DNA of 64,000 nucleotides from positions 5,728,001-5,792,000 of the forward strand of contig OZ242311.1 in assembly GCA_965207885.1 (NCBI GenBank), written 5' to 3'. The stretch comes from Candidatus Latescibacterota bacterium (lineage in GTDB: Bacteria > Latescibacterota > UBA2968). The notes under the pieces are model-generated. The model did not search any database. It worked only from the letters and a program-made list of their open reading frames with translations, and was not told where the DNA came from. The position numbers and the translations under genes are program-made. Positions 12,191 through 47,631 of this stretch are shown one piece after another (positions within the stretch are counted from its first letter, which is position 1; each line of letters starts with the position of its first letter).

Positions 12191-12900
12191 TTACTGCGTC
12201 CACTGCAACGCTGTGTTAGCGAGTGTTATGTCACGTATATCCCTTTGTATAGTGGCTGATATTTCTTCTGCACTGCTATTGTTTACGTCAATAATTTGGT
12301 CGCTAAACTGCGAAAAAATGAACGCGGTATATGTGGATTGTTCAAAGTCGAACCGCGTTGGATGAGATAACGTGCTCGTAATTTGAGTATCTCAAGCATT
12401 TTTGATGGCGTATAGCCTTCATCATCCATTTCTGATAGGTACCTATCCCGATTCCACTGTCGTTTATGCAATGCCTGTGCATCACTCAGACTGTATTTGC
12501 TCTTCTCACCGCAAATAATGTACAAATCTTCAAGATTGAGTTTATCCGCAATACGTCTTTCTATGGCAAAATCAGGCGCAATATAACTCTCGACCTTTCC
12601 GATCCAGCCCTCCATATCATCAGGCCCAAGCGTGAGCAGTCCTTGTAGCTCTATCCCTGAAGCGTCGTAAAAGCCAAATACCCATATCCGAGCACGCCAT
12701 TTTGCAATATGATCAGGGCCTACATCTCTTGCAGTTGAAACGGAACCGCGTGTTGTTGATTTGAGTTCTATAGGCGCAGAGAAGTTCTGTCCGTGCGCTA
12801 CAAAATCGAGAAAGGCATCCACCTCAGAACGGCCTTCTCCTTTTCGAAGCCCTATGAGCTGACACATTTCCCTTTCTCGTTGATCGTCTTGAACAGCCAT
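12191..12900 (-). CDS. putative type II restriction endonuclease (PD-(D/E)xK); ORF as read ends at 12283, likely frameshifted C-terminus to 12191
   Basis: VDAF...IELKS motif; abuts the C5 MTase; alternative frame after the T6 run at 12313-12318 continues SQFSDQIIDV...WTQ-stop. Confidence 0.5.
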
Positions 12901-14025
12901 CTAAACACCCAACGCACTTGACACAGATTTTGCGATTGCGTAACCCACCGGTGGACAAACAGAATTACCAATTTGCCCAAGTATCTGGTAAGCTGCGCCT
13001 TGAAAGACCCAATCTTCTGGAAATCCCTGAAGCAACGCGCAATCCTGAACAGAAAGCCTGATATGACCATTCTCCGGAGGAAAAATCAGGGCTTCCTCTC
13101 TGGATTTTTGCACGCCATTGGGCCAAATCTGGAGTTTTTCCCATACCTTTTGACTCGCCTTACTATTCAAAATACTGGTCGATTTTCTGGGACCCGTAAA
13201 ACCAGAACGAAGAGTAGGCGCAAAGCAATCAAAACCAATATCTTCCAGACCCAAAGCAGCCCTCGTTCCCATCGTATGTCTGCCAGAGTAGAACAAGCTA
13301 TCTTTGGAGAAATGGGTTGGTTCAGGAATTTTGTAACGATTGGCTACCTCAAGAGACCGAAAACCGACAAAAATAACGCGCTTCCTGATTTGTGGAACGC
13401 CGAAATCGGATGCCACAGCTTTGAACTTTGCGATATAGTAATGCGGTGTCAGTGGCGCGAGAATCACGTCGTTTACATACTTTTCGAACTTTGGATCGAG
13501 CAGACCCGGAACATTCTCAACAACGAAAGTCTCGGGCATAAGCGTCAGCACAGCATCAATAAATGCTGGCAACATATCCCTGTCGTCTTTGCCTCCACCC
13601 CGCTTTCCAGCAATCGAAAAAGGCTGACACGGAGGACCTCCGTGAATGAGATCTACTTTACCTTTATAGACTGACCAATCTGCTTTTGTAACATCCCCCT
13701 TTGAACCATAAAAAACATTCCATTGCGGACGGTTTTGTTGTAGTGACGCACCGCAAATATCCAGGATATCAAAACTGGCAACATGCTCAAAACCCGCATA
13801 TTCAAAACTAAGGTCCAAACCGCCACCACCTGAAAAGAGCGAAAGGGATCTCAAGCCGTTTTGACGTTGTTTAGGCATCAACTTCTCTGGTTTTAGAACA
13901 GGCTCATTGATTTTGCCCAGTTCATGTTGCAACTCACCATTGATTGCAGCCTTTTTCCTGAGCCTGGACCGAGTAGAAATCTCTCGATACCACTCCCGTT
14001 TGGCCTTCGATATATTGTATGGCAT
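12901..14025 (-). CDS. DNA (cytosine-5) methyltransferase
   Basis: SLFSGGGG, GGPPCQPFS, ENVPG, PQIRKR and IGNSV motifs. Confidence 0.92.
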   Translation of the reverse strand: MPYNISKAKREWYREISTRSRLRKKAAINGELQHELGKINEPVLKPEKLMPKQRQNGLRSLSLFSGGGGLDLSFEYAGFEHVASFDILDICGASLQQNRPQWNVFYGSKGDVTKADWSVYKGKVDLIHGGPPCQPFSIAGKRGGGKDDRDMLPAFIDAVLTLMPETFVVENVPGLLDPKFEKYVNDVILAPLTPHYYIAKFKAVASDFGVPQIRKRVIFVGFRSLEVANRYKIPEPTHFSKDSLFYSGRHTMGTRAALGLEDIGFDCFAPTLRSGFTGPRKSTSILNSKASQKVWEKLQIWPNGVQKSREEALIFPPENGHIRLSVQDCALLQGFPEDWVFQGAAYQILGQIGNSVCPPVGYAIAKSVSSALGV

Positions 14026-19081: not shown

Positions 19082-19207
19082 GGTCCAACAATTACTGGGA
19101 TGTTATTGGCTAATGGATGCCAAAAATGTTTTGAGAGATTGCGTGAGAGACGATTTTAAGATAGATTATAAAAAATAAAATTCTGAAAGCACAACAAGAG
19201 ATTTAAA

Positions 19208-19897
19208 ATGTCGGATATAATATCTCCCGTAAACGACGAGAATACAGTACAGCTCGACCCCGAGTCCCTCGTGGCGCGTATCATAGCAGAGCTTCAAGCC
19301 AATCCCGAAGCTCAAAGTCTCTTGTTGCGTGCGTTGCTCACCAACGAATTTCTCGGTATGCCGGTACGCCTTGAACGTATCGAAGCCGATGTTGCAGAAC
19401 TCAAAGTGGATGTTGCCCAACTCAAAGTAGATGTTGCCCGACTCAAAACGGATGTCGCTCACCTCAAAGGCGACAGCCTTGAAGTGAAACTCCATCGCAG
19501 GATTCGCCCCTTGCTCAGCCAAAGGCTCAACCTGCGCCGCGCACAGGTCCTGCAAAGCCCCATCCAGGACACCCACGCTGAGTTGTATGAGCCAATCGAA
19601 GCAGCTTTTGACGAAGGTCGCATCACAGACGCGCAGGAAACCCGCATCCACGTAACTGACCTCATAATTCGCGCCCAGCGCAAAGCGGATCGCTCGCCGG
19701 TGTGGGTAGCAGTTGAAGTGTCCAACGAGATTCACCGACGCGACCTGGACCGGGTGCGTCAAACGGCCGATGCGTTGGGTGTGGTCTTCCAAACGTCTGT
19801 CCTCGCAGTCGTTGCAGGATATCACATTGCACCTCGGGATCAAGCGCGTGCCGAAGAGTCCGATGTTCACACTCTTCTCATTGCAGAGAATAACTAA
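19208..19897 (+). CDS. hypothetical protein with heptad coiled-coil repeats and PD-(D/E)xK-like C-terminus
   Basis: DVAELKV/DVAQLKV/DVARLKT/DVAHLKG heptads; TDLII...AVEVS. Confidence 0.6.
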   Translation: MSDIISPVNDENTVQLDPESLVARIIAELQANPEAQSLLLRALLTNEFLGMPVRLERIEADVAELKVDVAQLKVDVARLKTDVAHLKGDSLEVKLHRRIRPLLSQRLNLRRAQVLQSPIQDTHAELYEPIEAAFDEGRITDAQETRIHVTDLIIRAQRKADRSPVWVAVEVSNEIHRRDLDRVRQTADALGVVFQTSVLAVVAGYHIAPRDQARAEESDVHTLLIAENN

Positions 19898-19941
19898 AAA
19901 GAACCTTTCAAATCCCGATTTCGTGATTGAATTAATAGCCA

Positions 19942-20142
19942 ATGAAACCGGAATACGATTTCTCCAGAGCCGAAAGAGGAAAATTTTACCGCAAGGGTGC
20001 TGAAATCCGGCTGCCAATTTACCTCGATGCAAAACTCCAGCACCGGCTTGAACAGGTCGCGAAAAAAAGAGGCAAAGATTTGGGCGAAGTAGTGAATCAA
20101 ATTTTGACAGAGGAAGTGGAACGCGTTGAAGCATTGCTCTGA
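19942..20142 (+). CDS. orphan BrnA/CopG-like antitoxin
   Basis: MKPEYDFSRAERGKFY start and RHH-like C-terminus; no toxin adjacent. Confidence 0.65.
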   Translation: MKPEYDFSRAERGKFYRKGAEIRLPIYLDAKLQHRLEQVAKKRGKDLGEVVNQILTEEVERVEALL

Positions 20143-20345
20143 TGAGAACAGGAATATCGAACTGAGGATAGCGACTGATGTACTCCACATATTGCAAAAT
20201 TTTAAACCCCTGGAGAGATACACTCTTCAGGGGTAATTTCGATAGATTTGAATTACAAGCAATGTTACAAACATTCATAGATTGAAACTTTAGAGGTACT
20301 GGTTATACTACAAAAGTCAATGCAATGTCTCAAAAGGATAATGAT

Positions 20346-22031
20346 ATGCAACACAAATTGGTCGCTGTAGTCGGCAACACACCGCAAGTTATGACAGAAA
20401 CGTTTTGGGCATTGTACGACGGCAAAGTGCCCATCGATGAAGTATATGTGATAACCACAACGGTAGGACAAAAAACCTGTCAGAAACGCCTTTTGGACGA
20501 AGGACGTTTTGAAAAGATGCTGTTGGATTACAATATCGCCCCTAACACCGTCGCATTCGGTCCCGATCATATCTATGTATTTGAAGACGCCGAAGGCAAT
20601 TTTTTAGACGATATTCGCACCTCAGAAGACAATCGCATTGCGCGAGATGGCATTTTTCAATTGATAGAAACACTGACGCATGACGATCAAGTGGCGTTGC
20701 ACTGCTCGCTTGCCGGTGGAAGAAAGTCTATGGGCTTTATACTGGGAGCAGCCATTCACTTTTTTGGGCGACCACAAGACCGACTTTATCACGTTCTGGT
20801 TTCTATGCCCGAGATTGAGAGAAGCGATGCATCCTATTATTATCCACCAGAGAAACCTGAACCGATTATGGTGTTTAATCGCAGTACAGGTCGAGAAGAA
20901 CCTCTAATTGTCAATGGTCAGAAAGTCATGAGCGATGCTGTGAGCATTGAGTTGGCGGACGTACCATTTTGTCGATTGCGCGATGTGGTGCAGTTTGTAG
21001 CACCCGGACAATACACCGAAGACACCCTGAGATTGACACAACAGGCAGTCAATGATTACGCAAAGCAGATGCGAGAGGCGTATATAGACCAGGTCGCATC
21101 GGGCGCAGAAGATGCGTTTCCAGAAATCATCGGTCAGAGTGACAGCATTCGGGATGTTAAGAATAGCATTAGACGATACGCGCCTTATAGTCATTCAGTA
21201 TTGATCACAGGTCCTACTGGATCTGGCAAAGACCTCGTTGCTGCTGCACTGCACAAAGCGAGTGATCGGACAGGGAAATATCGCCCAGAAAACTGCGCCA
21301 GATTGGGAGAATTGGCGGAAAGTCAATTGTTTGGTCATGAAAGGAATGCATTTACGGGCGCAAACAAGCAGTATCGAGGTTTGTTTGAACAAGCAAATAA
21401 TGGCACGCTCTTTCTCGATGAAATCAATTCGCTTCGCCCCGATATCCAAGGCATGCTTTTGCGGGTCATGGAAGATGGTGTGATAAGACGAATGGGTAGT
21501 GATAAAGCTATCCCGGTAAATGTGCGCCTTGTTGCCGCGACCAATGAAGATCTGGATACAGAGGAGAGCGGATTTCGAGGCGATCTTCTTGGCCGTTTTT
21601 CTTTAACCATTGCGTTGCCGCCGCTAAAAGACAGGCGGGAAGATATTCCATTACTTGTCCATCACTTTTTGAAAAGTTTTTCAGAAGAGTATGGAAAAAA
21701 TTTCGCGGGTTTTACGGAAGAAGCCATGCGCGCATTGCAGGCTTATGATTGGCCCTACAATGTCCGAGGGTTAAAGACTGCTATTGAACGGGCAGCTATT
21801 GTGACGCCAGAAGATCAATGGATTACGCCCGATGTGTTATTTGAGCAAAAGGATGCGGATATATTTCAGGGTTCGTTCGACGAGCAAGTGGCGCAATTAG
21901 AGAAAAAACTCATACAAGACGCGCTGGCGCAGAAGGGCAGTATTACACAAGCTGCTAAGATGTTAGGTATGGAGCGGTCAAAGCTGAGTAGAAGAGCTAA
22001 AAAATATGGCTTGACTGAGAAGGCGTCGTAA
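20346..22031 (+). CDS. CARF (NE0113/ring-nuclease-like) domain fused to sigma54-dependent AAA+ activator and Fis-type HTH
   Basis: N-terminal VGNTPQVMTET...DDIRT...SLAGGRKSMG...DRLYHVLV; then GPTGSGKD, ESQLFGHERNAFTGA, LFLDEI, AATN, WPYNVRGL and HTH ITQAAKMLGM. Alternative start at 20325. Confidence 0.88.
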   Translation: MQHKLVAVVGNTPQVMTETFWALYDGKVPIDEVYVITTTVGQKTCQKRLLDEGRFEKMLLDYNIAPNTVAFGPDHIYVFEDAEGNFLDDIRTSEDNRIARDGIFQLIETLTHDDQVALHCSLAGGRKSMGFILGAAIHFFGRPQDRLYHVLVSMPEIERSDASYYYPPEKPEPIMVFNRSTGREEPLIVNGQKVMSDAVSIELADVPFCRLRDVVQFVAPGQYTEDTLRLTQQAVNDYAKQMREAYIDQVASGAEDAFPEIIGQSDSIRDVKNSIRRYAPYSHSVLITGPTGSGKDLVAAALHKASDRTGKYRPENCARLGELAESQLFGHERNAFTGANKQYRGLFEQANNGTLFLDEINSLRPDIQGMLLRVMEDGVIRRMGSDKAIPVNVRLVAATNEDLDTEESGFRGDLLGRFSLTIALPPLKDRREDIPLLVHHFLKSFSEEYGKNFAGFTEEAMRALQAYDWPYNVRGLKTAIERAAIVTPEDQWITPDVLFEQKDADIFQGSFDEQVAQLEKKLIQDALAQKGSITQAAKMLGMERSKLSRRAKKYGLTEKAS

Positions 22032-22049: not shown

Positions 22050-22152
22050 GAGCAAAATTGCACATCGCGTGCAATTCTACACACTGGCCCGACATGCTGG
22101 TATGGTAGTGGTTTTCTCGTTTTTTATTTACCAAACGTGTGTATATTTGCAC
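22050..22152 (+). promoter_or_regulatory. three candidate enhancer (UAS) sites, GTGCA-N4-TGCAC-like, upstream of cas6
   Basis: GAGCAAAATTGCAC 22050-22063, GTGCAATTCTACAC 22069-22082, GTGTATATTTGCAC 22139-22152; the same motif occurs at 45361-45394. Confidence 0.65.
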
Positions 22153-22251
22153 GATTGAACATATCGTTGTCCATTTCCTGTTTGAAAAAAATATCACACA
22201 ACCTGTTGTTTTTTTTGATCTCTGAGGAAATTCGGAGATTTTTTTTGTGTT

Positions 22252-22267
22252 TGGCACGCGATTTGCA
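22252..22267 (+). promoter_or_regulatory. sigma54 -24/-12 promoter of the cas6-interference operon
   Basis: TGGCACGCGATTTGCA matches TGGCACG-N4-TTGCW exactly, about 50 bp upstream of cas6. Confidence 0.85.
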
Positions 22268-22314: not shown

Positions 22315-23286
22315 ATGTTTACACTCGAATTCGCGTATATGCGCCTGCATTTCAAGGCGCGAGAGCATTTGCGCCTGCCACCCTATAAAGGCTCCACATT
22401 TCGCGGGGCTTTTGGCGTGGCATTTAAGCGTGCGGTTTGTATTGTGCAACACGGCGAGTGCGAACGGTGCCTGGTTCGGACCCAGTGCGTGTATCCATAC
22501 ATATTTGACACACCTGTAGATAATGCACAGGGCATCTTCCGCGGGTATAGCGAGGCACCCCATCCCTATCTGATCGAACCCCCACTGGAGACCAAAACCG
22601 ATTACACACCGGGCGACGACTTTGCCATTGGTCTGACCCTGATAGGCCGGGTACTGAATTACATGCCCTATTTCATCTATACATTCCAGCGAATGGGAGA
22701 CACAGGTATTGGACGAGGACGCGGCAAATGCGATCTCATTTCAGGCGAAGCACTGCACGCGGATGGAACCTGGCAGGCGGTGTACGACGGAGCGAGCGAA
22801 GTGTTGCAACAAGATGTACCCCATCTGACCGCGCAAGATCTGATACACAACGAAATAGGATCTCGGATTCGCCTCTCATTTGTAACGCCCACACAACTCA
22901 AAGCAGACCGGATATTGCAGCGCGGATTGGATTTTTCCGTGCTCATACGCGGGCTATTGCGGCGGTATTCGGCATTGGCCGCATTTCACGCAGACGGACC
23001 GCCAGATATAAATTATGCCGACTACATCGCGGCGGCAGAGAATATTCAAACCACATCCCACAACTTGACCTGGCGCACATGGCAACGGTATTCAAACCGC
23101 CAGAACCGACGCATGAGCGTGAGTGGTTTTACGGGAGATGTGGTCTTTGAAGGCGACATGACACAATTCCACCCCCTGCTGGCTCTGGGTGTGCCGATGC
23201 ACGTTGGCAAATGGACCAGCTTTGGGATGGGACAATACAAGTTTTATCAATCCACAATCAACCGAATGGATGAACAACATGGGTAA
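22315..23286 (+). CDS. cas6: CRISPR pre-crRNA endoribonuclease Cas6
   Basis: GSTFRGAFG, CxxC region, C-terminal G-loop HVGKWTSFGMG. Confidence 0.9.
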   Translation: MFTLEFAYMRLHFKAREHLRLPPYKGSTFRGAFGVAFKRAVCIVQHGECERCLVRTQCVYPYIFDTPVDNAQGIFRGYSEAPHPYLIEPPLETKTDYTPGDDFAIGLTLIGRVLNYMPYFIYTFQRMGDTGIGRGRGKCDLISGEALHADGTWQAVYDGASEVLQQDVPHLTAQDLIHNEIGSRIRLSFVTPTQLKADRILQRGLDFSVLIRGLLRRYSALAAFHADGPPDINYADYIAAAENIQTTSHNLTWRTWQRYSNRQNRRMSVSGFTGDVVFEGDMTQFHPLLALGVPMHVGKWTSFGMGQYKFYQSTINRMDEQHG

Positions 23287-23629
23287 TCAAGCCAATCAAG
23301 GGTACGATAAATATTATTCTGAAGACAGCTTCTGGAAGAAGTTGCTCAACTTTGCACGCACCGCGGGCCGGGAAGTCGTCGAGAATGCTCTGTCGCTCTA
23401 CTACACTGCCCAGGCACCTGACACACCAACCTGGGCCAAAACGGTCATCACCGGGGCACTGGGGTACTTTATTCTTCCGGCCGATGCAATTCCCGACCTG
23501 ATTCCTGCTGTCGGTTACGGCGATGATCTGGGTGCGCTGGTCGCGGCACTTGCAGCCGTGGCGGCTCATGTGACACCTGAGATCAAAGCCCGCGCAAAAG
23601 AAAAAGCAGCCGAGTGGTTTGGTGAATAA
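23279..23629 (+). CDS. YkvA/DUF1232 family membrane protein
   Basis: ALGYFILPADAIPDLIPAVGYGDD signature. Confidence 0.85.
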   Translation: MGNQANQGYDKYYSEDSFWKKLLNFARTAGREVVENALSLYYTAQAPDTPTWAKTVITGALGYFILPADAIPDLIPAVGYGDDLGALVAALAAVAAHVTPEIKARAKEKAAEWFGE

Positions 23630-23648: not shown

Positions 23649-24788
23649 ATGCGCTTTGTTCTATCAACCATTGGTACAAGCATCTTGACAAATTTCATCG
23701 ATAAAACAAATTTTGGTGAAGCTAAATGGCAGGGTATGCTACGGGATTCGGCGAATCTCAAACCAGATGAATTATCGCATGAAACTACAGAAGTGATTGA
23801 AACACTCGTTGACCGGGCATTGACGCAACTCCTAAGAGATGATGTAGCTACCAATCGCCGGATTAGTGCCGAATTGAACGGTATCTATGGTATTTATGAA
23901 GGTCAATTGCCTCATAACAGTCGAGACCAGCACTATCTCATCTGCACTGACACTGCCCAGGGACAGAAGACGGGCAAACTGATTCAGGATTTTCTTGAAA
24001 ATAAAGGGTTTGTCGCAGGTATTGTTACGCCTGATAGACTTTCAACACAAGGCCCGGAATCTTTCACCACAGGTACAAAAGACCTTATCCGCTGGCTGGA
24101 GGAAAACGTGCCGTGGCGACGCGATGTGGGCTATCGCGTAATCTTCAATCTCGTTGGTGGCTTCAAAAGCCTACAAGGTTATATGAATACTTTCGGTGCT
24201 TTTTACGCCGATGAGGTCATTTATATATTTGAGGCACCAACTGCTGACTTAATCAAAATTCCGCGTCTGCCAATTCAGATTGATACAACCGTGATTCAAA
24301 ACCATCGGGTGCAATTTGCGATGATGGATGCTGAAAAACTGTATCCTGTTGAGGAACTCGAGGGGATTCCAGAAACACTGCTTGAATTTATAGAAGAGAA
24401 AGGCCAGACTTATGCGGGATTATCGGCGTGGGGCCAGTTGATCTGGAACCTCACGAAATCGGATTTATTGACAAAAAAACTATTGCATTTTCCACGATTG
24501 GGATATGGAAAAACTTTCAGGGATGACTTCGACAATCAGAATGATTCCAGGAAACGTCTTAAACTGCAAGAAACCCTGGCAAGGGTCTCATATCTACTTG
24601 AACAGAACAATGGCAACCGGGCACTGCTTATGCGAGATGGTGGACTGCAATTTGAAAAATTTACCAATAGAGAGAGTATTTACAAATTCCGCATTGATCG
24701 CACTATCCGCGTCAGTTGCTCGGTTTCTGAAGGTGGATTGATCCTTCGGCACTATGGACATAAAAATGTCGTGTACGAAAATCCATAA
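23649..24788 (+). CDS. CARF (APE2256-like) + RelE-like effector, Cami1-like mRNA interferase
   Basis: STIGTS, SAELNG, TDT..G and NLVGGFKS CARF motifs; C-terminal YKFRIDRTIRV...RHYGH resembles RelE. Confidence 0.7.
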   Translation: MRFVLSTIGTSILTNFIDKTNFGEAKWQGMLRDSANLKPDELSHETTEVIETLVDRALTQLLRDDVATNRRISAELNGIYGIYEGQLPHNSRDQHYLICTDTAQGQKTGKLIQDFLENKGFVAGIVTPDRLSTQGPESFTTGTKDLIRWLEENVPWRRDVGYRVIFNLVGGFKSLQGYMNTFGAFYADEVIYIFEAPTADLIKIPRLPIQIDTTVIQNHRVQFAMMDAEKLYPVEELEGIPETLLEFIEEKGQTYAGLSAWGQLIWNLTKSDLLTKKLLHFPRLGYGKTFRDDFDNQNDSRKRLKLQETLARVSYLLEQNNGNRALLMRDGGLQFEKFTNRESIYKFRIDRTIRVSCSVSEGGLILRHYGHKNVVYENP

Positions 24789-24863: not shown

Positions 24864-26483
24864 ATGGCCTGCGAATCGTTTGTCATCGTAATTGATACCC
24901 CTTCTATCAAGAGGTATGTATTTGGAACCGACCCCTTAAATGAGATACGAGGTGCGAGCGCACGTTTAGATTGGCTAAATCGAATCAAAATGGAAGAACT
25001 TTTGTGTGAACACCTCAGTAAGGCAGATGTAAAATCGATTTACGCCAATGGTGGTTCGGCACAGTTTTTAGTTCATGAGAGTGACAACCTCACTGTGAAT
25101 ATGGCCTGTACAAATATGGTTCGGTATATCCGCAATCAAACGGGTGGCGAAGTCCGGGCAGTTTATGGTATCGCACCGCTCAAAGACGAAGCTTCCTATC
25201 AAGAGGCGGTGCATAGGGCACATTTTCAGTTGCGCTGTCAACGCGAATTTGGGACCAGCTACCGCAGTGCGTCTTTAATACCGACCATGATGGAATGTCA
25301 ATCAGCCTCGCATCTGCCCGCGGCTCATATTGTGAATCGAGGCGCAGATGGTATAGGCATGTTATCTAAGGCGAGTTACCAAAAGGAACTGCGGGGGCAT
25401 GAAGCCCGCCGTCATGGACTCTGGGACGGATGGATGGATCACTTGAAAACCACGGGACCGTGGCCAGGAGAGGAGCAGTGGAATAAACTGCGGTGTAAGA
25501 GCATGACAGATATAGGTGACCACTCGTCATGGCGCAACTACATTGGCGTGGTTTATGCCGATGGAAATGCCATGGGACAAATTGTCCAAGCACTCAATCA
25601 TCCAGAGACATTCCGCCAATTTAGCGAAATTGTTGATAATAGCATTCGACAATCATGTTTCACCGCACTCAGCCAAATTTTCCAGACTGAAATCGAAAAC
25701 ATTCGGGAGGCTTTTGAACAAAACCGCCGCTTTGAACACCTTGCCGCCGATATTCTGCTCTTGGGAGGAGATGATTTGCTGGTGGCCGTACCAGCTAACT
25801 CTGCACTCGATTTCGCCTTGAAGGTCACAGAAGAATTTGAACGCTTGACACAAGAGAAAATTGCTGCCCTGAAAGACGCAGAATCTCGGCAGTTCTTCCG
25901 CGACCGACTTGGGGATCGGGGTTTCACAATTTCTTGCGGTGTTGCCATAGCAAAAAGCAACTATCCCTTTTACCTGTCATTGGATCTGGCCGAGCAATTG
26001 TTGAAAAATGCCAAACGGAAAGACAGCTATGGGGCACAACTCGAAACACCCGGTGAAGCTCGCATTGACTTTCATGTTGTGACTGGTGCGAATAGCCATG
26101 CCCTCAAAGAGGTTCGTGAAGAAACCTATCAGATAGCAAGCAATGCACGCCGCACGCTCAGACCCTTGTCTTGCCCCCAGTTGGAATTACTGCACAACAG
26201 TGTACAGAAACTACGCAACGTGAAATTTCCACATAGCAAATTGCACGAACTTCGAGAAGCAGCACTGGCAAAAACGGAGAATCAAGCCGACTGGCGCATT
26301 CGCGACATTTTCGTCCGGTGTCGGCATGATCGAAATAGCTCTGAACGTCGTGCATTGTGGCAAGCGGTGCATAACCTGTGCCCCCAGGGATATACGTTTG
26401 ATTTTCCCTGGTTCATAAAAAATGGCCAACGCCTTCTGTGTGTAGCGGACATAGTGGATATTTACAACTTATTCCGAAAATAG
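24864..26483 (+). CDS. cas10: Cas10, short HD-less form with intact cyclase motif
   Basis: IDTPSIKRYVF...IRGAS, YADGNAMG, LGGDDL, AEQLLKNAK. Confidence 0.9.
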   Translation: MACESFVIVIDTPSIKRYVFGTDPLNEIRGASARLDWLNRIKMEELLCEHLSKADVKSIYANGGSAQFLVHESDNLTVNMACTNMVRYIRNQTGGEVRAVYGIAPLKDEASYQEAVHRAHFQLRCQREFGTSYRSASLIPTMMECQSASHLPAAHIVNRGADGIGMLSKASYQKELRGHEARRHGLWDGWMDHLKTTGPWPGEEQWNKLRCKSMTDIGDHSSWRNYIGVVYADGNAMGQIVQALNHPETFRQFSEIVDNSIRQSCFTALSQIFQTEIENIREAFEQNRRFEHLAADILLLGGDDLLVAVPANSALDFALKVTEEFERLTQEKIAALKDAESRQFFRDRLGDRGFTISCGVAIAKSNYPFYLSLDLAEQLLKNAKRKDSYGAQLETPGEARIDFHVVTGANSHALKEVREETYQIASNARRTLRPLSCPQLELLHNSVQKLRNVKFPHSKLHELREAALAKTENQADWRIRDIFVRCRHDRNSSERRALWQAVHNLCPQGYTFDFPWFIKNGQRLLCVADIVDIYNLFRK

Positions 26484-26497
26484 AGAGGAGTTTACCC

Positions 26498-27235
26498 ATG
26501 AAATCCCAACGCCTAAATTTGTGCTACCACATTATTTGGCAAGGACGCTGGCATGTTGGCAGCGGCTATCAGTCGGCAGTGGCGGACCGCTTGTTGCGAC
26601 GACTACCCAATAATGCACCATTTGTTCCTGGCTCTCAGATCAAAGGTGTTCTGCGCCATCAATGCGAGCGGTTGGCACTGGCCCTTGATCTCAAAGTGAT
26701 CAATCCCCATGCTGGCATTGAAGAAGACGAACAAAATCTGATCAAGCATTTTACGCCGTTAAAAAAATCGGACCTGATGGTCGATAGGTTATTTGGCAGT
26801 CGCTATCAGGGAGAGTGCCTATTTGTGACGAATGCGGTGCCGATGTCGTCTGCAGAGAAAAGTATGACTTCCGTACAGGCACGCACAGCCATTGATCGCG
26901 TCACGGGGACTGTGATGGAACAACACTTGTTTACAACTGAATTGACAGAGGGTGATGTCAACTTGCGAGGAAAAATACGCGCACGGCATCCTGCTGGTGT
27001 TCTGACACAAGATGAAGATGGCTTTCCTTGGGAGTATGCCCTTTTGATAGCAACCCTGCTGTCGCTGGATGCTCTCGGCGGCGATAAGAGTCTTGGCCTC
27101 GGGCGGTGTGAGGTCCAAATCGAACCAGAGTCGTTGTATTGGAACGACCAACGCATTTCGTTAGATGAAGCTCTTCAAAGTTTTCAAGAGGAAGACTGGG
27201 GCGAGTGGGTAGATATTTTGCGTGAGGAGTCATGA
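26498..27235 (+). CDS. Cas7-group RAMP (Csm3-like)
   Basis: WHVGSG, PGSQIKGVLR, TAIDR, GGDKSLGLG. Confidence 0.88.
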   Translation: MKSQRLNLCYHIIWQGRWHVGSGYQSAVADRLLRRLPNNAPFVPGSQIKGVLRHQCERLALALDLKVINPHAGIEEDEQNLIKHFTPLKKSDLMVDRLFGSRYQGECLFVTNAVPMSSAEKSMTSVQARTAIDRVTGTVMEQHLFTTELTEGDVNLRGKIRARHPAGVLTQDEDGFPWEYALLIATLLSLDALGGDKSLGLGRCEVQIEPESLYWNDQRISLDEALQSFQEEDWGEWVDILREES

Positions 27236-28482
27236 TGAGAAAAAAAATACCTTTGACAGCACAATTACTTGCGCCAGTAGCTATCAAACGCGATCGACAA
27301 TCCGAACGTTCTGGAGGCGTGCATTCTATGGCTGGTACGATGGTTCGCGGTGCCCTAGCTGCTCTCTATTTACAGCATCATGGAGAAGTAGATGATACCT
27401 TCAATCATTTGTTCTTAGATGAGAATTCATGTCGATTTGGACCATTGGACCCCGGTCCGCGCTGCTTCCCATTAACTACCGCGGAGTGCAAACGGGAAGG
27501 AATAAAACATGCCCTCGTGGACCAACTGTGGTTTCGGATCGCCCAACACTACCTGACTGGCAGTGTGCCAGATAATGCCGAAACGCCCTGGCGTCAATGT
27601 GACATATGTAAAGCCGACTTGAAGAACCTGAACGGCTTTTGGGAAAAAGAAAACGGTCGTCTGCAGGAAAAAAGTAATGAGCGGCAACAGGTCGCCGCCC
27701 ATGTTGGCATTGACCGTCACACCACCACCGCGGCGGAATCAATATTGTACACCCTTGAAGCCTTACAGCCTTCCGGTCAAGAGGAAGACCTGTACGGCTG
27801 GCTCATGGCTGACGACGATGCGCTTACTGCCTTGAAACAACTCTTGCAGAATGAAGATTACCGCATCTCGGTGGGCCACCATCGCACGCGCGGTTACGGA
27901 GATCTGCGCTTACAGTTGGGCAATCCTGTGGAGAAGAATGATTCACAGCCGCGCATAGAAGATTGGGAACAATGGAGCCGCGATCTGATTGCGTTTCTGA
28001 GTTCACCGCCGCTTTCCATTCCCGATCTCGATCCAGATGATTTTTACTTTAGTTTGTCGTTTCCCACTGGCGCAGTGTTTGTGGACCGCTTTCTGTGTTA
28101 TACTCTCGATCCAGCAGACCTGATTTCATGGTTGTCGCCTATGCCTTCTGCAGATGCCGCGTTTCCAATTCAGAATCGTCCGACCCGACAACTCGCATCA
28201 GGGGGCACAATGTGCTGGATCGCTGCCGTAACCCGACATGAGCGTTTGCGCGGCTGGAATGCAGCTCACGGCTTGCCGCGTCAGGATGAATGGGCCGTAG
28301 TACGAGGGTCAGTCTATGTTTACCGCTTTACAGGCACGGCCACAGAACGCGAGACACTCATTGAACAACTTGCAACCTTGTCCGAAGAAGGCGTCGGTCT
28401 GCGGCGCAATGAAGGCTTTGGCATGGTGATCGTGTCCGATGATTTCCATCGCCAATTTTGCAAACAGGAGGTGCAATCGTGA
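27232..28482 (+). CDS. Cas5-group RAMP (Csx10-like)
   Basis: GTMVRGALA, VGIDR, HRTRGYG, GLRRNEGFG. Confidence 0.8.
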   Translation: MMRKKIPLTAQLLAPVAIKRDRQSERSGGVHSMAGTMVRGALAALYLQHHGEVDDTFNHLFLDENSCRFGPLDPGPRCFPLTTAECKREGIKHALVDQLWFRIAQHYLTGSVPDNAETPWRQCDICKADLKNLNGFWEKENGRLQEKSNERQQVAAHVGIDRHTTTAAESILYTLEALQPSGQEEDLYGWLMADDDALTALKQLLQNEDYRISVGHHRTRGYGDLRLQLGNPVEKNDSQPRIEDWEQWSRDLIAFLSSPPLSIPDLDPDDFYFSLSFPTGAVFVDRFLCYTLDPADLISWLSPMPSADAAFPIQNRPTRQLASGGTMCWIAAVTRHERLRGWNAAHGLPRQDEWAVVRGSVYVYRFTGTATERETLIEQLATLSEEGVGLRRNEGFGMVIVSDDFHRQFCKQEVQS

Positions 28483-28904
28483 TCGTCTTGAACACCGGTT
28501 TGATCCAAAAAGTTGATCTCTACATTGACGAGAACCATAAAACATTTTCAGAACTGGGAGATCGTTTCTTTGACGTATTTAGCTATGACAAACGGAATGA
28601 TCGCATTAATACGCAAATCCGGAATCTGCAACAAATTACCTGCTCCGCTACGCGCTTTGCGGATATCGAAGATTTTGTAAAAAACCAAATGGGAAAAGAA
28701 GAAACTAAAGACCCCAAATGGAAGAAAGTGGGAGACAGCACCTTAAAAAAATTAAAGGAGTTGCGCGACAAAAGCCAGGAATTTGATTCCGATCCCGCTA
28801 ACCAGATGGCACTGCGTCTCCGTCTCGCTCGTGGTTGGGTGCGTGCCGTAGTCAGTCAGTATCTCTATCGCGTTGCATGCGATCAAATGGGAGAGAGGCC
28901 ATGA
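28479..28904 (+). CDS. small helical subunit (Cas11/Csm2-like)
   Basis: Size, position, TQIRNL...FVKNQMGK pattern. Confidence 0.55.
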   Translation: MIVLNTGLIQKVDLYIDENHKTFSELGDRFFDVFSYDKRNDRINTQIRNLQQITCSATRFADIEDFVKNQMGKEETKDPKWKKVGDSTLKKLKELRDKSQEFDSDPANQMALRLRLARGWVRAVVSQYLYRVACDQMGERP

Positions 28905-29422
28905 CATGCGTTGATTTACTATCTGATACCACCTACTGTGAACAGGCTGTTCAACAACTGGATCGACTATTGGGTGACATGAATCAATTCCCCGTAAAGC
29001 GCACGCAGATCTACGGCCTGCGACAAATCGCCCAGCAACAGCCCAGAGAAATTCAAGGATTTGCCAATCATCAGCGCGAGCGTGCCCAGCGCAAGCAGGA
29101 AAACGCCTCCGAAAACACCAAACCGAGATACCAGCCTGAAATCGATTTCTGGGCTCTGGTGGCCGATTTGTGCAGCAATTCGAGTTCTAATTGGTCTGTG
29201 GAAGAGGAAGGACACACCCATCTTCCTGAAGAACTACAAAATATTCCGGCAAGGCGGAAAGGCATGTCACATGAGGAACAACGGTATTTAAACGAACTCA
29301 AGAGGCATCGAAGGGAATTACTCGAACAATGGACAAACGAGCATATTCCAGCGTTTTTTGAACGGTTTTGTACACACGCTTTATACCGCTTGGGAAAGCA
29401 AAAAAACTCGAAAAAGGAGTAA
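28901..29422 (+). CDS. second small helical protein (Cas11-like or ancillary)
   Basis: Overlapping stop/start within the operon; RTQIYGL...FANHQRER pattern. Confidence 0.5.
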   Translation: MTCVDLLSDTTYCEQAVQQLDRLLGDMNQFPVKRTQIYGLRQIAQQQPREIQGFANHQRERAQRKQENASENTKPRYQPEIDFWALVADLCSNSSSNWSVEEEGHTHLPEELQNIPARRKGMSHEEQRYLNELKRHRRELLEQWTNEHIPAFFERFCTHALYRLGKQKNSKKE

Positions 29423-29425
29423 AAC

Positions 29426-30277
29426 ATGACGAATGACGATGCATTGGCTGCCAGTTTTGGATTGAGACAAAAGATCCGACTTACTGCATCTCTTGTGTTT
29501 GATACTGCATGGCGCATTGGATCTGGTAAAGAGGGCGAAACCATGAGTGATTTGGGTGTGGTGCTTGATCCTATAGGTCAACCGGTGCTTCCAGGTTCCT
29601 CTCTCAAGGGAAAATTGCGAAGCACCTGTGAAACTCTGTCACATGCGCTTGGGTTGAGAGCCTGCATGTTGAATCACAACGCAAGCGGTGTCAAATGCAC
29701 AAGTGATGTGAACTATTATCGCACTGTTCGTGAAACATATCAGGAAGCATTGCAAAAGGGGTTACAGGATCGCCTGCAATGGATTGAAGAGAACACCTGC
29801 GACGTGTGTAAATTATTCGGATCACCAATGCAGGCAAGCCGGCTTTGTATAAGCGATGGCCTGCTTAAAGAATGGGCCTCTATTGTGCAAGTACGCGATG
29901 GCGTCGTGATTGACCGCGATAGCCAGACAGCTGTCAATGGTCTTAAATACGACTATGAAGTTGTTCCGCCCGGTAGCCGATTTAAAATTTGTATTGATCT
30001 CGAAAACCCAACTGACCAGGATGTGGCCTTACTCGGTGCCGCTTTATTTGAATGGCACTCTGGTAGCAGTATTGGAGGTTTTACAAGCCGTGGACTTGGA
30101 CGCTTTCATCTGGAGGATATTCAGCTTGTCGGTGTTGACATGGCCGACAGTGAGCAACGCATGAAGTTCCTGACCGGGAAAAAGGCTAAAGATCGTCTTT
30201 CTGATTGGGACAGTTGGGATATCTACTTCACCAGGTACATCAAACAGCAATTAGAACCTGATACTCAGGAGGATTAA
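29426..30277 (+). CDS. Cas7-group RAMP (Csx7-like)
   Basis: RIGSG, PGSSLKGKLRS, CDVCKLFGS, RDGVVIDR, GGFTSRGLG. Confidence 0.88.
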   Translation: MTNDDALAASFGLRQKIRLTASLVFDTAWRIGSGKEGETMSDLGVVLDPIGQPVLPGSSLKGKLRSTCETLSHALGLRACMLNHNASGVKCTSDVNYYRTVRETYQEALQKGLQDRLQWIEENTCDVCKLFGSPMQASRLCISDGLLKEWASIVQVRDGVVIDRDSQTAVNGLKYDYEVVPPGSRFKICIDLENPTDQDVALLGAALFEWHSGSSIGGFTSRGLGRFHLEDIQLVGVDMADSEQRMKFLTGKKAKDRLSDWDSWDIYFTRYIKQQLEPDTQED

Positions 30278-30279
30278 CC

Positions 30280-31236
30280 ATGTTGCGGAAATGGCTTTGT
30301 CAAGCCGATGTAAAAATTGCCATCGAACCGGTTGATCCGGTGTTGATTAAGAGCGGCTATGCTACCAGAGATGGTGCAGATATGGTGCCAGTATCAACAT
30401 TTAGAAATGAGGAGAGAATCTATTACTTTCCAGGAACATCTCTCAAAGGCGTGTTGCGTAGCCATTTGGAGCGAATTGCCCGTACCTTGCAGCAAGGTAG
30501 TGTGTGTATTCCCTACTATCGAAATAACAGCACCCCAATACCTGTTGCAGCGGAACAGCACGCCCATGGCTGCGGATTTCGTTCACGAGGTGGAAGGAAT
30601 GGAGAGGCTACATCGGCCAGGTACGCGGATTCGTGCGCCATATGTCGGTTGTTTGGCTCACTGAAATTTGGCGGACGTTTTAGCGTTGGAGATGCCTACC
30701 CCTTGCCGGACCATAAACCCACTTTAGAATCGCGCAACGGAGTGGGTATTGACCGTTTTACAGGTGGATCGGTATCAGGTGCTTTGTTTGACCTGCAAGT
30801 TCTGGTCGGCGGTAAATTTGAAGCAAATCTACGGTTGACAAATTTTGAACTCTGGCAATTGACCGCTCTCAATCTATTGCTTGCCGATCTACAAGATGAG
30901 ATGATTACCATAGGTTCGGGACGAAGTAGAGGTCTCGGGCGCGTGCGCGGCACTGTCACTTCGTATTCTTTAACCTATGTACAGGAGGAAAGTCATCTCG
31001 AAGGTTTATATCAACTCGCAACCTCGGAGGAGCAGCAAGCCTACCGGTTGCACGACTGGAAGCCCGATAGTCCGATTGAGCTATCAACGCCTGAGTCGCA
31101 TGGTTTGCGGCAGGAATACGATCTGAGTTCCGATTGGCTCCAGCATTTGCAACCGCTCGTTCCAGCCTTTGAGGCATTTTTGCGGTGGCACGGCGGACCT
31201 CAAGGGCAGATATCCCAACAAGGGGATAGGTCATGA
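30280..31236 (+). CDS. Cas7-group RAMP
   Basis: PGTSLKGVLRS, CAICRLFGS, RNGVGIDRFTG, GSGRSRGLG. Confidence 0.88.
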   Translation: MLRKWLCQADVKIAIEPVDPVLIKSGYATRDGADMVPVSTFRNEERIYYFPGTSLKGVLRSHLERIARTLQQGSVCIPYYRNNSTPIPVAAEQHAHGCGFRSRGGRNGEATSARYADSCAICRLFGSLKFGGRFSVGDAYPLPDHKPTLESRNGVGIDRFTGGSVSGALFDLQVLVGGKFEANLRLTNFELWQLTALNLLLADLQDEMITIGSGRSRGLGRVRGTVTSYSLTYVQEESHLEGLYQLATSEEQQAYRLHDWKPDSPIELSTPESHGLRQEYDLSSDWLQHLQPLVPAFEAFLRWHGGPQGQISQQGDRS

Positions 31237-31826
31237 CTACCTTCTTAAAAACGGCGGATTTGACACCAGATCAGTTTCTCGATCTGATTACCAATCTCGA
31301 CCACGATGACACACCCCAGCAACGGATCTGGCTGGAAACACCTGATGGTTGGGCCTTCAATTGGTGGTGCGGCCTGGCTGGCGACCTCTCTTGGTGTGGT
31401 GCAGGCCGCGAGCCGGTTGAAAAATCTGCCCGTGATTGTCTGACCCGATCTACCTCCGGGCGATTGTTTGCGCCTGACGGTGAACTGCGCTGGCGCGTTA
31501 TTCCCTCTCTGGGGGAATCGTGCTGGCGTACCGTTTTCCTCGGTAACGCCGATTGGGTGGGTACTGCATTAAACGACTACTCAGATAAACTACATGATCT
31601 GCATCCACATCAGGACAGCTTTTTTTTGTGGGGCCAGCAAACCGATGAGACACCGAATGAGTGGATTGAACTACGTATTCCACATCGCTTCAATTATCCG
31701 ATTAGCGATAACCCTCGCAGCGTGAGCGTTGTTGTTGAGCAGTGGAGCGACGATGCCGGTGAGCCTCACTTTGTCCGATTGTGTGATCTCAAACCCTATC
31801 AGGAGAACAGTGATGCCGCAAGGTGA
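31233..31826 (+). CDS. Csx19-like type III-D subunit
   Basis: GRLFAPDGELRWR, LWG, ELRIP, C-terminal VRL; typical position before the last Cas7. Confidence 0.65.
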   Translation: MTTFLKTADLTPDQFLDLITNLDHDDTPQQRIWLETPDGWAFNWWCGLAGDLSWCGAGREPVEKSARDCLTRSTSGRLFAPDGELRWRVIPSLGESCWRTVFLGNADWVGTALNDYSDKLHDLHPHQDSFFLWGQQTDETPNEWIELRIPHRFNYPISDNPRSVSVVVEQWSDDAGEPHFVRLCDLKPYQENSDAAR

Positions 31827-32916
31827 AAATTTCTGGAATCCTTATCGCTGGGTTACCATCAGCGATCAACCCGTCGAATACGACGACCTACCTTATCAAC
31901 ATGTAGTGAACGACCTTTCCGGCCGTATCTGGTGCGAACTTGAAGCCCTGACGCCATTCATCGTCGGTGACGGACATGGAATGTTTGTCAAGCATTCCCA
32001 TACTTTCAGTCCATATATTCCGGCCACTTCGCTTAAGGGTGCAATACGTTCTCTCGCAGAAATCGTCGGAAATGCGGCTGTGCCGTTTCCAAATGTTTCG
32101 GTTGATAGCCAACACGCATTGACACGAGCACGCACCAACAAGGGAGGGCGCTCGCAGGTTGACACTGTAGCCAGAACATTTGGCTATTTGCACGGTGGTA
32201 ATGTCTTCGCTGGCTTGATACGCTTTAGTGACGCAGAAATCACTAAAGAACCGCTACCGCCAAACCAATGGCCACAGTACGATGTCGCTGTTGGTCAGCC
32301 CAAGCAGAGCCATACTGCGTTTTATCCTGGAAATAATCAACGCAAATTCTATCACCACCGCCCCGGTGCCACACAGCTTACCGCACCACACGCTGGCATT
32401 ACACAAACGAGTAGCGTACAACCTGCACCTCCCGGCACACGCTTTAACTTTACGGTGAACTTTGCAAATCTACGTAGCTCTGAACTCAACTTGCTACTCT
32501 ACTGTCTGATGCTCGAAGAACAGGTCACTGTCACGCTAAGTCCAGCGGCACTTGGTCGTGATGAAGCGCAAGGACCTGTCATATTAGAGGGACCCATGCG
32601 CCACAAAATGGGAGGTGCCAAACCTCATGGTGCTGGTTCGGTTCACATTCGTATCACCAGGATGGAGTTGCGTACAGATGCGATGGCACGCTACCGGGGT
32701 AACGATTCTATTGAAACCTATAAAGCAGAAGATCTTACAAATGAATTCGAAAATCGTACCGCATCATTTCGGAATCGCACCGATCAAACGATGCAAGAAT
32801 TACGCGCCATGTTGATCTATTCTCTCGAGGATCCCAGACAGCCGATACATTATCCGACCTATGGATGGTTTCGAAATGGGAACAATGCAGGCACGCAGTT
32901 AAAGCCTACAATATAG
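31813..32916 (+). CDS. Cas7-group RAMP of the type III-D terminal (NPY-start) class
   Basis: FWNPY, IPATSLKGAIRS, RKFY, NL...EL..LL, KMGGAKPHGAGSV. Confidence 0.82.
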   Translation: MPQGENFWNPYRWVTISDQPVEYDDLPYQHVVNDLSGRIWCELEALTPFIVGDGHGMFVKHSHTFSPYIPATSLKGAIRSLAEIVGNAAVPFPNVSVDSQHALTRARTNKGGRSQVDTVARTFGYLHGGNVFAGLIRFSDAEITKEPLPPNQWPQYDVAVGQPKQSHTAFYPGNNQRKFYHHRPGATQLTAPHAGITQTSSVQPAPPGTRFNFTVNFANLRSSELNLLLYCLMLEEQVTVTLSPAALGRDEAQGPVILEGPMRHKMGGAKPHGAGSVHIRITRMELRTDAMARYRGNDSIETYKAEDLTNEFENRTASFRNRTDQTMQELRAMLIYSLEDPRQPIHYPTYGWFRNGNNAGTQLKPTI

Positions 32917-34287: not shown

Positions 34288-34301
34288 TTTGTAAAAAGAT
34301 G

Positions 34302-34339
34302 ATCAGGATGTATTACCCGGCATTGTGGCCGATCTCAAC
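34302..34339 (+). repeat. degenerate CRISPR repeat just after the last cas gene
   Basis: ATCAGGATGTATTACCCG matches 16 of the first 18 nt of the repeat; the 3' half has decayed. Confidence 0.55.
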
Positions 34340-42062: not shown

Positions 42063-42081
42063 CTCAGAAAGGAATCATTTA

Positions 42082-45360: not shown

Positions 45361-45394
45361 GTGCATTTTTGCACGGATGCGTGCATTTCTGCAC
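45361..45394 (+). promoter_or_regulatory. tandem candidate enhancer sites GTGCA-N4-TGCAC
   Basis: GTGCATTTTTGCAC 45361-45374 and GTGCATTTCTGCAC 45381-45394, about 105 bp upstream of the -24 box. Confidence 0.7.
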
Positions 45395-47630: not shown

Positions 47631-47631
47631 T

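Follow-up and report, generated by a model that had tools for sequence, protein, structure and literature searches.

A CARF5-type sigma-54 activator beside a type III-D CRISPR locus in Latescibacterota: a candidate cyclic-oligoadenylate-responsive regulator of interference and adaptation genes

How type III CRISPR-Cas expression is controlled in bacteria, and how cyclic oligoadenylate (cOA) signals feed back on the immune genes themselves, is poorly understood. Two transcriptional routes for cOA are known. In archaea, Csa3a and Csa3b are cOA-linked CARF transcription factors that sit in CRISPR loci and control adaptation and interference (PMC7480081, PMC8844856), and in bacteria the CalpL-CalpT-CalpS protease-sigma cascade carries a type III signal, cyclic tetra-adenylate (cA4), to transcription through an alternative sigma factor (PMC11229360). 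RtcR, a CARF-AAA+-helix-turn-helix (HTH) activator, targets the rtcBA RNA-repair operon. Here we analyse a stretch of 64,000 nucleotides from a Candidatus Latescibacterota bacterium (NCBI GenBank assembly GCA_965207885.1, contig OZ242311.1, positions 5,728,001 to 5,792,000 of the forward strand; hereafter the window), in which a gene at 20346-22031 encodes a CARF domain fused to a sigma-54-dependent bacterial enhancer-binding protein (bEBP) next to a type III-D CRISPR-Cas locus. The reading that we prefer, at a probability of roughly 0.55, is that this protein is a cA4-triggered CARF5-type sigma-54 activator of interference and adaptation genes. Infection signalling probably turns this CRISPR immune system on and, if this is true, a CARF-gated sigma-54 activator would be a third transcriptional route for cOA.

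The locus differs from both known routes in how the signal would reach the promoter. Csa3 is an archaeal fusion of a CARF domain directly to a winged HTH that acts on ordinary promoters; in contrast, the protein described here is bacterial, its CARF domain belongs to another clade and is followed by a 240-residue AAA+ module and a Fis-type HTH_8 domain, and it would act through an ATP-driven AAA+ ring and sigma-54. In the Calp system a SAVED-Lon protease frees an ECF-type sigma factor, whereas here the CARF domain would gate a sigma-54 activator directly, on target promoters that can be read in the sequence. Parts of the idea have been put forward before. Makarova 2014 predicted direct transcriptional regulation by NE0113 proteins and, for RtcR-like CARF proteins, regulation via sigma-54, and the available part of that paper describes no NE0113-sigma-54 fusion (PMC4012209). 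The Myxococcus sigma-54 activator Nla28 targets a locus of putative CRISPR-associated proteins (PMC9765219); it differs in having no CARF sensor. In the portions available, PMC12669027 has no occurrence of sigma, NtrC, RtcR or CARF7, PMC12409355 does not describe a CARF-sigma-54 fusion, and neither does PMC11229360, which explicitly leaves transcription factors to future study. We found no published description of a CARF-sigma-54 activator at CRISPR loci, in a search that ran without the 2020 CARF census and supplements. What is new is the conserved and specific promoter-palindrome layout by which the regulator is predicted to be linked to cas genes, and the extension of its putative scope to adaptation genes.

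The regulator gene is a stop-free open reading frame (ORF) of 561 codons on translation, with these parts:

20346-22031, plus strand: CARF-bEBP gene, 561 residues (assigned with Pfam, NCBIfam and PADLOC profiles, AlphaFold models and Foldseek comparisons)
20346-20990, plus strand: CARF5/NE0113 domain, residues 1-215
residues ~225-252, plus strand: linker helix
21126-21845, plus strand: sigma-54 AAA+ domain and lid, residues 261-500
21888-22007, plus strand: Fis-type HTH, residues 515-554
20282-20309, plus strand: sigma-70-like promoter of the regulator gene, TTGAAA-16 nt-TATACT, 10 of 12 consensus positions

Pfam profiles match the protein at E-values far past chance level: Cas_NE0113 (PF09623) at residues 12-215 (E 1.4e-34), Sigma54_activat (PF00158) at residues 261-419 (2.9e-49, profile positions 1-163 of 168), AAA_lid_14 at residues 428-500 (1.5e-22) and HTH_8 at residues 515-554 (1.7e-09). 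NCBIfam TIGR02584 (cas_NE0113) scores 167.7 bits against a cut-off of 80.65. A preliminary description of this DNA had proposed an NE0113-like CARF domain fused to a complete bEBP and had singled out Cas_NE0113, Sigma54_activat and HTH_8 as profiles; all three match, and the fusion is borne out by Pfam, TIGR02584 and the PADLOC CARF5 profiles. Every motif that it named is present in the 561-residue protein, namely GNTPQ (position 10), GGRKSM (124), Walker A GPTGSGK (289), NAFTGA rather than GAFTGA (334), Walker B LFLDE (355) and the Fis-type HTH. The ATG at 20346 is favoured as the start over 20325; an AAGGA Shine-Dalgarno-like sequence precedes it, and most homologues start with MQHKL. The sigma-70-like promoter is a pattern match only, as such sites are no commoner in the region than in shuffled sequence.

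RtcR has the same plan as the regulator, with a CARF sensor, a sigma-54 AAA+ domain and a C-terminal HTH, and the AAA+-HTH half of the regulator matches NCBIfam RtcR (residues 224-538) and PADLOC RtcR_PspF2 (4.4e-81, residues 230-556). The likeness stops at the sensor. NF038308 scores 241.6 bits against a cut-off of 650 with no coverage of the CARF domain, and the PADLOC profiles RtcR, RtcR_PspF1 and RtcR_PspF2 match only from profile position 135 on. More generally, named bEBP equivalogs of NCBIfam (PrdR, NorR, NifA, RtcR and others) match the C-terminal half of the regulator only, far under their cut-offs. The CARF domain of the regulator is of the CARF5/NE0113 kind and has the basic motif II residues, whereas the CARF domain of RtcR is divergent and mostly lacks them (PMC4012209). 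The targets differ too: the neighbours and predicted targets of the regulator are cas genes, and RtcB and RtcA families were found in none of the 31 neighbouring ORFs scanned (12283-53541), the rest of the genome not having been searched for rtcBA.

The CARF domain is matched by the PADLOC profile CARF5--CARF at 3.3e-66 (PADLOC profile names are clade names of the type used in the CARF census). The matching CARF5 profiles are named CARF, CARF_TM and CARF_ADA and none pairs CARF5 with AAA_HTH, and the CARF_AAA_HTH profiles that match the regulator are RtcR types only, over the AAA+-HTH half only. An AlphaFold model of residues 1-245 has a pLDDT of 90.4, and Foldseek found 57 matches to it in the PDB at E <= 0.001; among the matches listed, all are CRISPR CARF proteins. 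The best are the cOA-binding ring nucleases Sis0455 and Sso2081 and the CARF domain of Cad1 (E 4e-07 to 8e-06). In Sso2081, motif I is G9-T10-S11, motif II is G104-R105-K106, and Glu17 and Asp75 contact the adenines (Du et al., PMC10018336). The regulator has G10-N11-T12 for motif I, G125-R126-K127 for motif II and E18 for Glu17, and D89 is the probable counterpart of Asp75, a pairing made by eye outside any alignment. Across 47 aligned CARF5 sequences these residues are invariant or nearly so, the hydroxyl residue of motif I is S or T (Thr12 stands at the Ser11 site in the regulator) and GGRKSM is invariant. At the level of sequence, both Crn1-type ring-nuclease motifs are thus intact, and because they are kept the CARF domain probably degrades its own ligand; the possible ring-nuclease activity raised in the preliminary description is supported at this motif level only. 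The Crn1 enzymes themselves (Sso2081, Sis0455), which share motif I, motif II, Glu17 and, by eye, the D89/Asp75 pair, differ in being small and stand-alone, while the regulator is fused to a bEBP and has the threonine.

Two further relatives bear on how such a domain might control a ring. Cad1 is a CARF5-adenosine deaminase of the same clade by PADLOC names, and its authors likewise assign it to CARF5. It has a preference for cA4, which it cuts to A2>P, and it forms a hexamer with CARF dimers on the outside (PMC12669630), a geometry that offers a precedent for control of a six-membered ring by CARF dimers; its effector is an ATP deaminase and not a transcription activator. Unfused NE0113/CARF5 proteins share this CARF domain at 34-47% identity, and every invariant residue is present in them. 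Their median length is 379 residues (149 tabulated of the best 150 library representatives); a C-terminal region without a Pfam match (7 of 7 scanned) follows the CARF domain, and they belong to other phyla, chiefly Proteobacteria. When modelled as a homodimer, the regulator's CARF domain scored 0.61, compared with 0.00 for the best of three controls (a mark that 20 of 30 solved same-chain pairs and one of 23 single chains attain), with at least 91% of contacts in common between runs and a partner pLDDT of at least 84. As solved CARF dimers exist and the model may reflect memory of them, this pass is a likeness and not proof. The predicted dimer interface consists of the motif-II helix and the linker helix.

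To the other side of the regulator gene, between its stop codon and cas6, lie a sigma-54 promoter and a set of enhancer-like palindromes:

22050-22063, 22069-22082 and 22139-22152, no strand: three enhancer-like palindromes, each one mismatch from GTGCA-N4-TGCAC
22217-22250, plus strand: terminator-like hairpin with a 10-pair stem and T-run, -11.2 kcal/mol, z-score -2.84
22252-22266, plus strand: sigma-54 (-24/-12) promoter TGGCACGCGATTTGC, a perfect match to TGGCAC-N5-TTGC
22315-23286, plus strand: cas6 (Pfam CRISPR_Cas6 4.6e-19, PADLOC Cas6 7e-100), 3' end rearranged by a ~193-bp deletion

The promoter stands ~50 nt 5' of the cas6 start codon, and the palindromes start 202, 183 and 113 nt ahead of its TGGCAC element (from 22050, 22069 and 22139). 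The T-run of the hairpin stops two bases 5' of the promoter, and a conserved A/T-rich block lies between palindromes and promoter; compared by eye with the E. coli IHF consensus, this block gave no good match, and we make no claim for it. The adjacency of the regulator to cas6, asserted in the preliminary description, is confirmed by the Pfam and PADLOC matches above. Relative to the related locus L005 (L and G numbers are our handles for loci and genomes), ~193 bp are missing at ~23238, corresponding to L005 12896-13088, where two palindromes and a second sigma-54 promoter lie between cas6 and the DUF1232 gene; the deletion also altered the last ~15 codons of cas6. With this second promoter unit deleted, the 22252 promoter appears to be the only one serving the operon that runs from cas6 to the Csm6-like gene.

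The preliminary description had called the protein a candidate master regulator of the CRISPR locus, and this appears to have been an understatement, as a second promoter-plus-palindrome unit precedes a PrimPol-cas1-cas2 operon:

45361-45374 and 45381-45394, no strand: two perfect GTGCA-N4-TGCAC palindromes, two of the genome's four perfect sites
45468-45493, no strand: hairpin flanked by T/A runs, directly 5' of the second promoter, -14.9 kcal/mol, z-score -3.14
45500-45514, plus strand: second sigma-54 promoter TGGCACGCTTTTTGC, a perfect match
45663-47630, plus strand: TPR-PrimPol/AEP gene (AEP-TOTE 3e-46; PADLOC PrimPol, 'adaptation polymerase', 6.2e-79)
47617-48633, plus strand: cas1 (Cas1 profile 1.5e-100)
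48651-48932, plus strand: cas2, a 93-residue ORF named by eye and not by profile

Here the palindromes start 139 and 119 nt ahead of the promoter (from 45361 and 45381). The genome is a 6.23-Mb single contig. Perfect TGGCAC-N5-TTGC occurs twice in the window (22252 and 45500) and 69 times in the genome, against ~12 expected from base composition. GTGCA-N4-TGCAC has 4 perfect occurrences genome-wide and 136 with at most one mismatch, which form 4 clusters of at least two within 100 bp; the palindromes of the CRISPR promoters are the only triple cluster (22050-22152) and the only perfect pair (45361-45394). As promoters with palindromes specific to them within the genome face both operons, the predicted regulon is the CRISPR locus with both interference and adaptation, and the regulator would bind the GTGCA-N4-TGCAC palindromes. 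No sigma-54 promoter was seen in the array leader (34290-34640).

Both units recur in relatives. Among 61 related genomes searched, a PrimPol orthologue is found in 8, all of which hold the CARF-bEBP as well, 14-30 kb away on one contig in seven of them and on different contigs in G012. The promoter and both palindromes recur at 5 of these 8 orthologous PrimPol loci (L080-L084), and the unit was not found at any of 4 PrimPol paralogue loci (L088-L091). For the first unit we aligned the regions after the regulator stop codon from the window and 11 related loci, and a sigma-54 promoter (consensus GTTTGGCACGC-N3-TTGCATATA) lies 137-280 nt past the stop codon in all 12 full-length loci. Palindromes start at about -112/-113 in all 12 and in some also at about -132/-133, -182/-202 or -239/-260, and these distances hold across three promoter contexts. 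In five loci (L002, L003, L005, L007, L011) the design is repeated after cas6, and the palindromes of this second unit lie at -133 and -112. Changes in the outer palindrome bases go along with the kind of C-terminal HTH, the sites reading AGGCA-N4-TGCCT at the first promoters of L007 and L010 and CTGCA-N4-TGCAG in L008 and L012; this co-variation is partial, as L011 shares the HTH type of L007 yet keeps GTGCA.

Two repeat-like features flank the adaptation promoter. A two-repeat mini CRISPR array (45234-45349) lies directly 5' of the unit, and a degenerate repeat (45533-45570) lies just 3' of the 45500 promoter, so that a sigma-54 transcript would start with repeat-like sequence.

The rest of the operon behind the first promoter, and the array that follows it, make up a complete type III-D CRISPR-Cas locus, with a GGDD-containing Cas10, Csx10, Csx19 and an array:

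23270-23629, plus strand: small DUF1232 gene (PF06803, 8.6e-12)
23649-24788, plus strand: CARF7-RelE gene of the Cami1 type, a cOA-dependent effector (PADLOC CARF7--CARF_RelE 1.8e-127, full length)
24864-32916, plus strand: type III-D effector genes (cas10, RAMP genes, csx10, two csx7, csx19 and a further RAMP)
33016-34287, plus strand: CARF1-HEPN RNase of the Csm6/Csx1 type (Csm6 HEPN and 6H domains; PADLOC CARF1--CARF_HEPN 7e-86; RNQSILAH motif)
34642-39499, plus strand: CRISPR array of 37-nt repeats ending ATTGAAAC, split by a group II intron at ~36502-38920

The short cas10 gene (24864-26483) encodes an intact GGDD at residues 301-304, as the preliminary description had stated, and no H-D pair was seen in the first 120 residues of Cas10. 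The Cami1-type family is described as cA4-activated (PMC11229360), and the presence of the CARF7-RelE gene in the operon therefore indicates cA4 as the messenger. The cOA species cannot be read from the Csm6-like protein, because it has no match among PDB sequences at E <= 0.01. The ligand of the regulator would be a cyclic oligoadenylate, most likely cA4, and the CARF domain may act on it as a nuclease.

It is also conceivable, if unlikely, that the CARF domain senses something else, either linear A2>P or A4>P or RNA ends that bear a 2',3'-cyclic phosphate after a phage attack or after cleavage of the Csm6-like or RelE-like kind, similar to the proposal made for RtcR. RtcR, itself a CARF-bEBP, is reported to respond to tRNA halves with a 2',3'-cyclic phosphate (PMC7790460, PMC10159003), TaqCad1 is still activated by the A2>P cleavage products at high protein concentration (PMC12669630), and a ligand of this sort would ease the start-up problem that is taken up below. 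However, the CARF domain of the regulator is not of the RtcR type, with NCBIfam RtcR and the three PADLOC RtcR profiles confined to the AAA+-HTH half, it keeps the full set of cA4-contacting motifs of Crn1 and CARF5 proteins, and the CARF-bEBP occurs only beside type III loci with a GGDD-intact Cas10. We consider cA4 the better candidate.

In the mechanism that we propose, the regulator would be made from its own sigma-70-type promoter, and dimers held by the CARF domains would bind tandem GTGCA-N4-TGCAC palindromes ~110-200 nt 5' of the two sigma-54 promoters. Cas10, on recognition of target RNA, would make cyclic oligoadenylate, most likely cA4, and ligand in the CARF dimer would let the AAA+ domains assemble an active ring, which would spend ATP to open the sigma-54 promoter complexes. 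Two units would be turned on, the operon of cas6, the Cami1-like gene, the type III-D effector and the Csm6-like gene, and the PrimPol-cas1-cas2 operon, and the CARF domain would then degrade its own ligand and reset the switch. The direction of control, in which the ligand turns the regulator on, is one that we infer. Since the regulon is legible in the DNA, as two promoters, defined enhancer sites and interference and adaptation operons, infection-induced spacer acquisition, self-amplifying immunity and cross-talk among type III systems of one genome become directly testable. Sigma-54 promoters are essentially silent without an activator, and the module could therefore serve as a tight cOA-triggered genetic switch.

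Several observations weigh against this mechanism. The promoter-plus-palindrome unit was not found at 3 of the 8 PrimPol orthologue loci (L085-L087). At L009 (12059-21620) the promoter leads not to cas genes but to FGE-sulfatase-like, ankyrin-repeat, protein-kinase-like and DUF4407 genes. The conservation of the promoters is in part shared ancestry, because most of the loci come from one genus with ~90% identical cas6 and intergenic DNA. The L1 loop of the regulator reads NAFTGA, the sole such loop among the 24 recovered from the genome's 28 bEBP places. Lastly, there is a start-up problem, as both the sigma-54 promoter and the terminator hairpin stand ahead of cas10 and the second promoter has been deleted; a messenger from this Cas10 alone would therefore need basal expression. 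The preliminary description had proposed that cOA switches on sigma-54 transcription of the cas genes in a positive feedback loop. The transcriptional part of that proposal is strengthened by the conserved sigma-54 promoters with their enhancer-like palindromes, and the start-up problem counts against feedback in its simple form. Possible ignition routes are basal promoters that we did not see, first cA4 from a second type III locus in the same genome (4.078-4.095 Mb), or an inverted logic.

Under inverted logic, the ligand-free regulator would activate transcription and cOA would turn it off, or the CARF domain would merely drain cOA, and the negative feedback would cap the toxic Csm6-like and Cami1-like effectors. 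The start-up problem posed by a cas10 gene behind a sigma-54 promoter and terminator hairpin, with no second promoter, would then be gone, and the linker helix, which in the model lies within the predicted dimer interface, would be compatible with control of assembly in either direction. In contrast, activity without a signal would leave a tight, terminator-insulated sigma-54 design pointless, and adaptation genes in the regulon suit induction on infection better than shut-off. The sensor domains of bEBPs usually keep the ATPase off until a signal arrives, RtcR being an example, and this too speaks against inversion, which we judge improbable and slightly more so than a different ligand.

The genome has one complete rpoN, as the preliminary description required, in an ORF of 495 residues with the Sigma54 AID, CBD and DBD domains, and ~28 other bEBP genes. 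The AAA+ part of the AlphaFold model superposes on the central domains of NtrC1, ZraR, FleQ and PspF (TM 0.85-0.92 by target, rmsd 1.4-2.7), for example on the active ring of NtrC1 (1ny6_B; TM 0.92 by target, rmsd 1.6, 241 columns). Walker, sensor and arginine positions are invariant in an alignment of 22 family members. The Sigma54_activat score of the regulator is the lowest of the clear matches in the genome (170.8 bits vs 215-247). The relatives fall into two subfamilies. Subfamily A, which includes the regulator, has Walker A GPTGSGK and, counted by cluster, the loops GAFTGA (13), GAFTDA (9), NAFTGA (4), GAFSGA (4), GAFTNA (4) and NAFTNA (3), in which positions 1 and 5 vary, A-F and the last A are kept, and T is swapped only for S (GAFSGA, 4 clusters); position 5 is variable in other bEBPs of the same genome too. 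In subfamily B, Walker A is GETGTGK and the loops are GAYTGQ (31), GTYTGQ (19) and others. Loss of sigma-54 function through NAFTGA, which would leave the regulator only a DNA-bound repressor, a cOA sponge or a ring nuclease and the promoters relics or served by another activator, would fit the off-consensus loop, found once among the 24, and the low profile score, but is very improbable given that loops vary at positions 1 and 5 in relatives and at 5 in other bEBPs of the genome, that the ATPase residues are invariant, and that both promoters are perfect with locus-specific palindromes.

The regulator is a mosaic, because its CARF domain is close to that of subfamily B while its AAA+ domain is no closer to subfamily B than to unrelated bEBPs. 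Identity to subfamily B is 63-72% over the CARF domain, 41-43% over the AAA+ core and 38-77% over the HTH (for P0039, 72, 42.5 and 77%), and identity of the AAA+ domain to unrelated bEBPs is 39-49%. In a quick tree of 60 AAA+ domains, subfamilies A and B each formed one clade and were not joined; an approximately unbiased (AU) test on 24 of the 60 rows, 36 having been dropped for speed, did not reject a single AAA+ clade (p 0.498).

We found the fusion in no phylum but Latescibacterota. In a collection of 5.8 billion proteins, clusters that combine PF09623 with PF00158 make up 106 of the best 120 and none is named, and a look-up of five family clusters returned no names for any of them. Species-representative genomes encode a relative of the CARF domain at 78 loci, of which 11 (L002-L012) are full-length, all from Latescibacterota/Latescibacteria; in two more, L013 (Latescibacterota) and L015 (Gemmatimonadetes), the gene runs off the contig. 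The preliminary description had looked to the neighbourhoods of homologues for enrichment near type III loci, and this is what we found. In all 12 Latescibacterota loci cas6 adjoins the regulator (on its downstream side in 7, directly upstream in 5), a Cas10 is encoded no more than 10 kb away in 10 of the 12 full-length loci, and all 10 Cas10 proteins have an intact GGDD. The effector modules differ between loci. They are III-D in the window, L003 and L005, III-B (Cmr1/Cmr2) in L007 and L011, III-A (Csm1 with HD) in L010 and L012, and a variant with a cold-shock-domain RAMP fusion and a Cas10 of 531-547 residues in L002, L004 and L008; L006 stops after cas6.

Taking these results with the mechanism gives a fuller picture, which we hold tentatively and at somewhat less than even odds. 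A cA4 alarm would be wired through a CARF5-gated bEBP to ATP-driven transcription of the interference and PrimPol-Cas1-Cas2 operons and timed by its own cA4 cleavage; the regulator, cas6 and promoter would be a portable cassette placed before III-A, III-B, III-D or variant modules, with an AAA+ core exchangeable between two forms; and a second type III locus without sigma-54 control would be a sentinel whose cA4 ignites the silenced one. That second locus lies outside the window at 4078541-4095414 and contains a PrimPol paralogue (43% identical), cas1, a 552-residue Cas10 and an 800-residue ORF, together with a 328-residue ORF (4078541-4079527). A CARF-bEBP is absent from this locus, as are a nearby perfect sigma-54 promoter and repeats resembling those in the window.

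A search of the 61 related genomes with the CARF query (E <= 1e-5) gave a match in 13, of which 9 match over at least 218 of 245 residues, one (G055) in part, and three with only N-terminal remnants of 24-28 residues. The distribution of the CARF-bEBP is patchy, as expected of a defence island. Remnants of the first 24-28 codons of the regulator gene, 75-96% identical, were found in G002, G005, G010, G012 and G020 (L110-L114) and at L006 1300-1380, and some of the genomes that bear them have no full regulator gene, which suggests that the 5' part of the gene has been deleted or recombined more than once. At L014 (31-4595), in a Verrucomicrobia metagenome-assembled genome, an NE0113 CARF domain is joined to ~300 residues that match no Pfam family and contain no sigma-54 domain, and the next gene encodes a receiver-domain Orn/Lys/Arg decarboxylase.

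Some features of the neighbourhood were revised or added. The product of 23649-24788 matches Cas_APE2256 in Pfam, and its matches among PDB sequences are APE2256-family CARF proteins; we had considered a Crn1-like ring nuclease there and rejected it on the PADLOC CARF7--CARF_RelE match (1.8e-127). In L005, an otherwise 85-95% identical III-D locus, only the last 27 codons of the Cami1-type gene are left (13736-13816). A 370-residue ORF on the minus strand at 19166-20278, upstream of the regulator, is probably spurious; the plus strand there holds ORFs of 229 and 66 residues. The first of these (19208-19897) encodes a coiled coil and the second (19942-20142, plus strand) a ribbon-helix-helix protein (RHH_1 E 0.0025, under the cut-off). 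The group II intron in the array is on the minus strand (Rfam Intron_gpII 36502-36592, 68.3 bits) and carries a reverse transcriptase-maturase-HNH ORF at 36602-38386, with the array repeats restarting at 38932. Within 39933-43818, 44546-44950 and 12283-14025 there are other genes like those of defence islands, namely two tandem dynamin-like GTPases, a PIN-domain gene, and genes for a PvuII-like endonuclease and a C5 cytosine methyltransferase.

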